Part shown: positions 39,984 to 40,032 of the stretch, piece by piece
Layout: every line of letters begins with the position of its first letter
How positions within the stretch are numbered: the stretch's first letter is position 1
Origin: Escherichia phage ECO111 5-P
DNA: 64,000 bases
Strand: one strand, 5' to 3'
Sequence record: OR844765
Notes under the pieces: generated by a model
What the model saw: the letters and a program-made list of their open reading frames with translations, nothing else
Databases searched by the model: none
What the model was told of the DNA's origin: nothing
Program-made: the position numbers and the translations under genes

Positions 39984-40032
39984 GTTTACTTCTCCTCTGG
40001 TTTTGATATTATAACCATATCAACCAGAGGAG
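39984..40032 (+). promoter_or_regulatory. Early promoter embedded in an 11-bp perfect inverted repeat (PeSL-like)
   Basis: GTTTACT 39984-39990; TATTAT 40007-40012; IR arms CTCCTCTGGTT 39992-40002 and AACCAGAGGAG 40022-40032; downstream arm contains the SD for ATG 40039. Confidence 0.6.

Follow-up and report, generated by a model that had tools for sequence, protein, structure and literature searches.

An early promoter embedded in a Shine-Dalgarno-pairing hairpin before motB.2 of a T4-like phage, a probable promoter-dependent mask on translation

Why would a phage place an early promoter inside a hairpin whose downstream arm holds the next gene's ribosome-binding site? The question is raised by an element at positions 39984-40039 (+ strand) of a 64,000-nucleotide (nt) stretch of Escherichia phage ECO111 5-P (sequence record OR844765). 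This stretch, hereafter the window, comes from a T4-like Mosigvirus with 96-99% identity to vB-Eco-KMB38, phiC120 and RB69 relatives. The gene that follows the element is motB.2, a conserved early open reading frame (ORF). The original prediction described a promoter within a hairpin that carries the Shine-Dalgarno (SD) sequence in its 3' arm, and both the sequence and the RNA fold bear this out. The feature is real, non-random and conserved. Most likely it is an isoform-specific translational mask: we give a probability of about two in three to the proposal that the element gates translation of motB.2 according to the promoter from which the RNA originates. The element has the following parts.

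39984-39989, + strand: -35 element GTTTAC of a T4-type early (sigma-70) promoter, called by motif
39990-40002, + strand: 5' arm TTCTCCTCTGGTT (the anti-SD arm), occupying the promoter spacer
40004-40012, + strand: extended -10 element TGaTATTAT, called by motif (TG at 40004-40005, hexamer TATTAT at 40007-40012)
40004-40009, + strand: 5' strand of the inner stem, TGATAT, overlapping the extended -10 element
40017-40022, + strand: 3' strand of the inner stem, ATATCA, including the predicted transcription start at about A40019
40022-40034, + strand: 3' arm AACCAGAGGAGAA, including the SD GAGGAG at 40027-40032
40039-40563, + strand: motB.2 coding sequence, with its ATG at 40039 (174 amino acids (aa), PHROG 1106)

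An exact GTTTAC and a TGnTATTAT are spaced 17 nt apart, and canonical sigma-70 spacing predicts a transcription start at about 40019, the seventh base past the -10 element. The two arms, TTCTCCTCTGGTT and AACCAGAGGAGAA, form a 13-nt repeat that is 100% complementary, with 19 nt separating them. Counting the inner stem of 6 base pairs (bp), the hairpin has 18 bp in total, with a 2-nt bulge and a 7-nt loop. An 11-bp perfect repeat had been described here (CTCCTCTGGTT at 39992-40002 and AACCAGAGGAG at 40022-40032). It is indeed perfect, and its real length is 13 nt; the coordinates given at the time for the -35 element, the arms, the -10 element, the SD and the ATG were all correct. Because the 5' arm lies wholly within the spacer between the -35 and -10 elements, it cannot belong to RNA made from the element's own promoter. 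Since this arm is upstream of the -10 element, this conclusion stands for any start site 3' of the -10 element. The counterpart of this promoter in RB69 was independently predicted as the early promoter Pe:7443 (PMC1524935 suppl. 3).

How different are the two RNAs that could carry motB.2? Folded as RNA, the 86-nt motB.2 region reaches -24.9 kcal/mol (z = -5.1), and none of 200 dinucleotide shuffles folds as well. Within a 1-kb read-through RNA the computed pair probability of the hairpin is ~1.0. RNA started at the embedded promoter is nearly unstructured locally (-0.9 kcal/mol), and its leader of 20 nt on its own is at about 0 kcal/mol. The computed cost of opening the SD is 16-17 kcal/mol on the read-through RNA and 3.4 kcal/mol on RNA from 40017/40019; opening the entire 30S site costs 21-22 kcal/mol on the former and 6.1 kcal/mol on the latter. 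De Smit and van Duin reportedly related the stability of a stem at an initiation site to its translation, and by that relation a difference of ~13-15 kcal/mol amounts to an on/off switch.

We therefore asked what each RNA would do in the cell. Transcription from upstream early promoters (38449, 39007 and further up) would read through the motB-like genes into motB.2. On the resulting long RNA, the spacer at 39990-40002 would pair with 40022-40034 in the 18-bp hairpin of about -24 kcal/mol and bury the SD, 30S subunits could not load, and motB.2 would be silent. The embedded promoter would produce an RNA from about 40019 that lacks the 5' arm, and its open leader would be translated. Synthesis of motB.2 would thus be tied to its own immediate-early promoter, and not to the level or timing of read-through.

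This proposal depends on RNAs that reach the element from upstream, and the following features bear on it.

38449-39035, + strand: upstream early promoters, called by motif (GTTTAC at 38449; TGTACA at 39007 with TATAAT)
39977-39979, + strand: stop codon TAA of the upstream MotB-like ORF (39560-39979), 11 nt before the foot of the hairpin

A terminator scan found no terminator between the upstream ORF and the element and reported nothing at 39990-40034, and TransTerm predicted none at the equivalent position of RB69 (Nolan et al., PMC1524935 suppl. 6). The hairpin was itself considered as an intrinsic terminator and excluded: its stem is followed by TAATATGTTAG, which has no U-run. Neither the late promoter motif TATAAATA nor a MotA box was found at or near the element in a sequence scan. 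A ribosome terminating at 39977-39979 should stop short of the stem, so translational coupling with the upstream ORF is not expected to open it.

The position of a strong stem exactly at a gene boundary also invites the idea that the hairpin stops or attenuates read-through, as a factor-dependent terminator, as a pause or through Rho polarity on untranslated motB.2, and so insulates neighboring transcription units. With the SD masked, 525 nt of RNA would go untranslated, the extension of T4 early transcripts is sensitive to Rho and translation (PMC2988021), and the second gene downstream is goF/comC-alpha, for which a link to rho effects is known. We regard attenuation as quite improbable as the function of the hairpin, given the lack of a U-run and the empty scans in both phages; polarity, moreover, would be a consequence of a translational block and not an alternative to it.

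Is the arrangement before motB.2 unique? The window has just two inverted repeats whose arms match perfectly over 13 nt or more and whose loop is no longer than 30 nt: the 13-nt repeat of motB.2 and a 14-nt repeat at 27258-27302. When the window was shuffled 30 times with its dinucleotides preserved, the mean number of such repeats was 0.07 and no shuffle had more than one. Both of these, the longest perfect short-loop repeats in the window, sit at a promoter embedded in a hairpin. The second one was already known from the original prediction, which held that the architecture recurs and the sequence does not; the 27252 element has the same layout and different inner arm bases, as claimed. Among homologues of the 105-aa gene that it precedes, the design is present in some lineages and absent in others. 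A weaker candidate lies close by, in which the probability (P) that the SD is masked by bases preceding the transcription start is 0.58.

27252-27309, + strand: sister element with the same architecture, before a 105-aa ORF (PHROG 2110) with its ATG at 27307
27252-27257, 27258-27271, 27275-27280 and 27289-27302, + strand: parts of the sister element, in order GTTTAC, arm TTCTCCAGTAGTTG, -10 element TATTAT and arm CAACTACTGGAGAA
26818-26879, + strand: weaker candidate, with GTTTAC at 26818, spacer TTCCTCT (26827-26833) against SD AGAGGAA (26864-26870) and ATG at 26877

To assess the design across early promoters genome-wide, we scanned for GTTTAC-N17/18-TAnnnT followed by an SD and a start codon, and computed for each promoter-gene pair the probability that the SD pairs with bases 5' of the predicted start. 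In the window, 2 out of 14 pairs had P>0.95, against 0.1-0.2 expected after shuffling of the spacers. For T4, 8 out of 34 pairs exceeded this value (0.7 expected, with a maximum of 3 in 60 spacer shuffles), and 11 out of 34 had P>0.8 against 3.2 expected. A complete Mosigvirus genome gave 5 out of 38 pairs with P>0.95 (0.6 expected, maximum 2). An excess over shuffled sequence, on which the original prediction had staked its case, is thus present in the window, in T4 and in the complete Mosigvirus genome. Strongly masked SDs were 5- to 10-fold fewer with shuffled spacers and with random genomic spacers. In the window, the duplex energy of a spacer was -11.9 kcal/mol against its own leader and -7.7 kcal/mol against other leaders (permutation p<1e-5).

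If the structure matters, it should be kept where the sequence is not. We took motB.2 upstream regions from phage records and from contigs of IMG/VR and of metagenomes. A pattern scan of metagenomes gave at least 120 loci, mostly chance matches; after a blastp filter, the pattern matches comprised at least 30 true motB.2 homologues with at least 24 distinct upstream sequences, few of them from metagenomes. We compared 17 distinct motB.2 promoter-leaders that represent 5-6 lineages. The folding energy of the read-through RNA is about -13 to -24 kcal/mol for 16 out of 17. The leader L039 is a weak exception, with -8.2 kcal/mol and only 3 bp on the SD. In all 17 leaders, 8-20 pairs span the predicted start, and the promoter-started RNA has a folding energy of ~0 to -4 kcal/mol. 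The arm sequences, and even the positions of the arms, differ between lineages.

Mosigvirus leaders: arms TTCTCCTCTGGTT / AACCAGAGGAGAA
Second group (L034-type): arms TTCTCCTCATG / CATGAGGAGAA
T4-type leaders: arms TCCTCGGT-AGTTGTGGT / ACCATAGCT-ACTGAGGA
PEi20, PM2 and L035 types: hairpin 3' of the -10 element (e.g. GACCTCCT...AGGAGGTC), with a 5' arm that still straddles the start

The invariant feature is therefore an SD paired with bases that are absent from the promoter-proximal transcript. It is not a -10 element in the loop, because the PEi20/PM2-type hairpin lies wholly downstream of the -10 element. A MAFFT alignment of 10 leaders put the 5' arm of the T4 type one column off its partner, and for this reason base pairs were read off the fold of each sequence separately, with the SD's GGA as the anchor. 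Compensatory pairs occur next to the GGA at position -3 (U-A, A-U or G-U), position -4 (G-C, U-A or G-C) and position -5 (G-C, G-C or U-A), counted over a handful of lineages and without a phylogeny-aware test. Gene order also differs between T4 (dexA-motB.2-motB.1-motB) and the window (motB genes-motB.2-cef), and the promoter and hairpin stay with motB.2 despite the differing neighbors.

The leaders also help to separate selection on RNA from selection on DNA. The sense strand folds better than the antisense strand for T4 motB.2 (-23.7 versus -14.5 kcal/mol), T4 regB (-22.4 versus -12.5), PM2 (-17.8 versus -8.0) and L041 (-18.5 versus -13.6), and a Mosigvirus variant with a C-to-T change in the 5' arm retains a G·U pair. 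G·U pairs stabilize the sense strand over its complement, which speaks for selection acting on the sense RNA rather than on a DNA palindrome. At the DNA level, the repeat could serve as the operator of a dimeric protein, from phage or host, that turns early promoters off, or it could extrude as a cruciform and so modulate the opening of the promoter. In favor of this, the -10 element lies between the arms, whose centers are separated by 32 bp or about three helical turns; several Mosigvirus elements have the outer half-sites TTCTCC / GGAGAA in common; and how T4 early promoters are shut off is said to be incompletely understood (PMC3014915). We nevertheless judge a DNA-level role highly improbable. 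Arm sequences vary among promoters and orthologues, which leaves no single conserved protein site, and the PEi20/PM2-type hairpin no longer brackets the -10 element. The G·U wobbles of the T4-type, PM2 and L041 leaders become A·C mismatches on the antisense strand, which is 5-10 kcal/mol less stable, and this rules out a symmetric duplex or cruciform signal. A 19-nt spacer also makes cruciform extrusion unfavorable.

The design is found before regB, denV and motB.2 in both T4 and Mosigvirus, with inner arm sequences that differ. Two of the T4 genes behind masked SDs encode products of 153 aa and 138 aa, which we take to be RegB and DenV. The Mosigvirus ORFs of 152 aa and 137 aa are taken to be the regB and denV homologues, judging from their length, N-terminus (MTIN for the 152-aa product) and leader. 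For regB, the inner arms are CTTGACTG/CAGTTAAG in T4 and CTAGTTG/CAACTAG in Mosigvirus; for denV, they are CTCCTGTAG/CTACAGGAG in T4 and TTCCTCCAAG/CTTGGAGGAA in Mosigvirus. In Mosigvirus mar005p1 (L224-L227; reverse-strand positions 116499, 112884 and 119737), the putative regB and denV genes and a 59-aa ORF carry the design. In T4, it also occurs before rnh (P = 0.94) and five small ORFs. Its presence at regB may matter for the known autoregulation of this gene. The motB.2, regB and denV leaders of different genera thus retain the pairing while the bases change, which upholds the earlier suggestion that selection acts on the structure.

RegB itself may add a second layer. This nuclease inactivates T4 early mRNAs by cutting single-stranded GGAG in SDs, and structure protects such sites (PMC3014915, PMC1702504). 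Its sites consist of an intergenic GGAG(U) and, directly after it, an A-rich 7-mer free of C, and the SD region of motB.2 is close to the consensus.

40029-40039, + strand: GGAGAAUAAUA, matching 10 out of 11 positions of the RegB/S1 consensus GGAGRAYARAA (PMC1702504), a putative cleavage site

Folding predicts that this site is single-stranded only on promoter-started RNA. In T4, RegB cuts only two GGAU sites in vivo, and the motB.2 SD is among them (PMC1702504); an open form of the leader must therefore exist in infected cells. The short RNA would expose the near-consensus site GGAGAAUAAUA and be switched off quickly by RegB; the long RNA would hold the site double-stranded, and downstream cistrons would be spared cleavage there. 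It is likely that the short RNA would be both translatable and quickly inactivated, and the long RNA both silent and, at this site, protected. RegB/S1 sites as described resemble the window site in sequence and in their protection by structure. They are defined by sequence and single-strandedness and not by a hairpin, and we found no description of a site whose state, open or closed, depends on the RNA isoform, as is predicted here.

These same observations raise the question of whether the hairpin exists mainly for RNA metabolism, as a RegB shield, a stability or processing element, a 3' barrier or a 5' stem-loop, with masking of the SD as a by-product. The requirement of RegB for single-stranded GGAG and the near-consensus site are compatible with this, and many early promoters in the window and in T4 have inverted repeats around the -10 element only, so hairpins can exist there for reasons other than the SD. 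We consider this explanation unlikely, and it is in any case largely compatible with translational masking. What is invariant across lineages is the pairing of the SD GGA with bases missing from the short RNA, and a stability hairpin needs no such pairing. The GGAG of T4 denV is intrinsically resistant to RegB through its 3' context (PMC1702504) and denV has the design, so shielding cannot be its sole purpose.

How does the translational mask compare with known systems? In T4, the genes e (lysozyme), soc, 49 and I-TevI have a hairpin that masks the initiation region on long RNAs, and an internal promoter makes an open RNA (PMC3014915); the principle has been extended to I-TevII/III and Aeh1 mobE (PMC2330249). 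The element before motB.2 resembles e, soc, 49 and I-TevI in three ways: RNA started upstream would have its SD and/or AUG buried, RNA from the gene's own promoter would be without the 5' arm, and related phages retain the structure. As in that class, a stable hairpin has the SD in its stem, and the predicted start lies inside the hairpin. The known cases, however, have a late (gp55, TATAAATA) or middle promoter inside the hairpin, and their role is described as preventing the early synthesis of late proteins (PMC3014915, PMC2330249). Here the promoter is a sigma-70 early one whose spacer is the anti-SD arm, and the logic would be that only the gene's own immediate-early transcript is translated. 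Because the promoter is neither late nor middle, we place the element as an early-promoter variant of the T4 masking-hairpin class and not as a standard member. We did not find such a variant in the T4 reviews and papers searched, the older T4 literature lying outside this search; as far as the search reached, it is undescribed.

More distant systems share single aspects. Some bacterial operons yield two mRNAs of which a single one can be translated, for example Salmonella ugtS-ugtL (PMC8896665), where the 5' end set by promoter choice decides whether a cistron is translated; the organism and the arrangement of the RNAs are different, and we treat the resemblance as a lead only. RNA thermometers and riboswitch platforms also sequester the SD in a stem. 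In those, the same transcript opens or closes with temperature or ligand, and the stems are weak or mismatched. We rule out both for motB.2, since the 5' arm is missing from the isoform predicted to be translated, and the stem, at ~-24 kcal/mol, is perfect. An RNase III site was also considered and judged unlikely, as stem lengths vary from 8 to 19 bp across the leaders. A search of 39500-40500 with Rfam 15 returned only isrD on the minus strand (39745-39798), at 19 bits against a gathering cut-off of 37 (E = 0.55).

Several points weigh against promoter-dependent masking of motB.2. First, swapped promoter/leader pairs mask the SD as cognate pairs do (0.48 for cognate versus 0.45 for swapped pairs in T4, p = 0.20; p = 0.59 in the window). 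This is what would be seen if pyrimidine-rich spacers happened to complement purine-rich SDs by composition, as generic CTCC-like spacers pair with any SD. We find this account barely credible. Both repeats of at least 13 nt in the window sit at this architecture where 0.07 would be expected, shuffling of the spacers lowers the masking, cognate duplexes are the more stable, and compensatory changes extend outside the SD core. The swap control is also the wrong null, because SDs are all alike and many spacers have CTCC-like runs; its result leaves the stem extensions, which vary, together with the shuffles and the covariation as the grounds for specificity. Second, the design is present at only ~15-25% of early promoters, which makes it gene-specific and not general. 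Third, in the first 50 kb of T4, where annotated starts were used, 1 out of 11 promoter-proximal genes and 2 out of 73 promoter-less genes score, and these numbers are small. The measure missed the known soc and 49 hairpins and is thus insensitive to masks over the AUG rather than the SD. Fourth, Durand et al. noted that RegB may cut nascent RNA before structures form, which would weaken the idea of shielding. Fifth, where transcription starts, whether it reads through, whether translation is blocked and whether RegB cleaves are all matters of inference. Finally, the visible upstream promoters also belong to the early class, so it is not obvious what would be gained in timing; the gain may lie in dosage control, insulation or RegB shielding instead.

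Around the element, motB.2 comes after three tandem MotB-like genes (38509-39979) and before cef, goF and gene 39. Its function is not predicted: Pfam returned nothing and PHROG lists the function as unknown. The products of the other hairpin-controlled genes had no match in Pfam either. The three MotB-like paralogues (38449-39979 with their upstream region) start at 38509, 39065 and 39560, and the first two have near-identical promoter spacers, CCAAGGATGGTTGGAGTATAAT and CCAAGGACGGATGGAGTATAAT. The similarity of the spacers suggests that these paralogues arose by duplication of whole promoter-plus-gene cassettes. Further downstream, at 41867-41910, the window has a bidirectional terminator-like hairpin with a UUCG tetraloop (AAGGGCTTCGGCCCTT), directly followed by a MotA-box middle promoter (TTTGCTTTA-N12-TAGAAT at 41883) before the topoisomerase gene 39/60.

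Other short repeats occur at early promoters and initiation regions. Early promoters of the window (e.g. 27281-27290, 40013-40021 and 53098-53107) have a common motif, A(G/A)NC(C/T)TATCAA, downstream of the -10 element and near the predicted start. Together with the TGATAT of the extended -10 element, it makes a small built-in palindrome, GATAT...ATATC, that supplies the inner stem of several promoter hairpins. In a second class of inverted repeats, the arms flank only the -10 element (for instance, GGACTAT-gtTATAGT-AGTCC); the 3' arm stops at the transcript start and the SD is untouched. Sites of this class are at 28564-28600, 49990-50030, 50499-50540, 5262-5300 and 4536-4580 in the window, and at 30366, 38168, 75547, 25806, 131718 and 135130 in T4 (OZ035787, reverse strand), with arms of up to 13-15 nt. 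At 4969-5002 of the window, a perfect 12-nt inverted repeat (ACGATAGGAAGA / TCTTCCTATCGT) has an ATG in its 10-nt loop and an SD-like AGGAAGA in its 5' arm. It lies just 5' of the SD and GTG (5023) of a 79-aa ORF and may be another initiation-region structure. At 45708-45758, two 11-nt arms (GGCACTATTAC / GTAATAGTGCC) form a perfect inverted repeat around an AT-rich loop of 29 nt, 27 nt 5' of an ATG (45785); the repeat leaves the SD uncovered, and no T4-type early promoter was recognized there.

A broader generalization would be a conserved code of promoter-coupled translation at ~15-25% of immediate-early genes, including regB, denV and motB.2, in which the promoter spacer doubles as an anti-SD, the short RNA is translatable and RegB-sensitive, and the long RNA is silent and RegB-resistant. 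We put this forward tentatively, as a possibility that we would not yet bet on. If it holds, such cassettes would be insulated from read-through, with dose and timing fixed by their own promoter, and the abrupt shut-off of a subset of early proteins would be explained in part.

If the gating proposed for motB.2 is correct, a gene in a T4-type early operon need not be expressed from every transcript that covers it, and the output of a conserved set of early genes, including the RNase RegB, would follow their own promoters only. This would offer a testable mechanism for the distinction between immediate-early and delayed-early expression and a mechanism for the rapid shut-off of some early proteins. 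It would also give a reason why some GGAG sites on long RNAs escape RegB, and would explain why promoter, hairpin and gene move as one cassette. Such an element would be a natural design for insulated expression cassettes, in which ~50 nt combine a promoter, a translational insulator and an SD.

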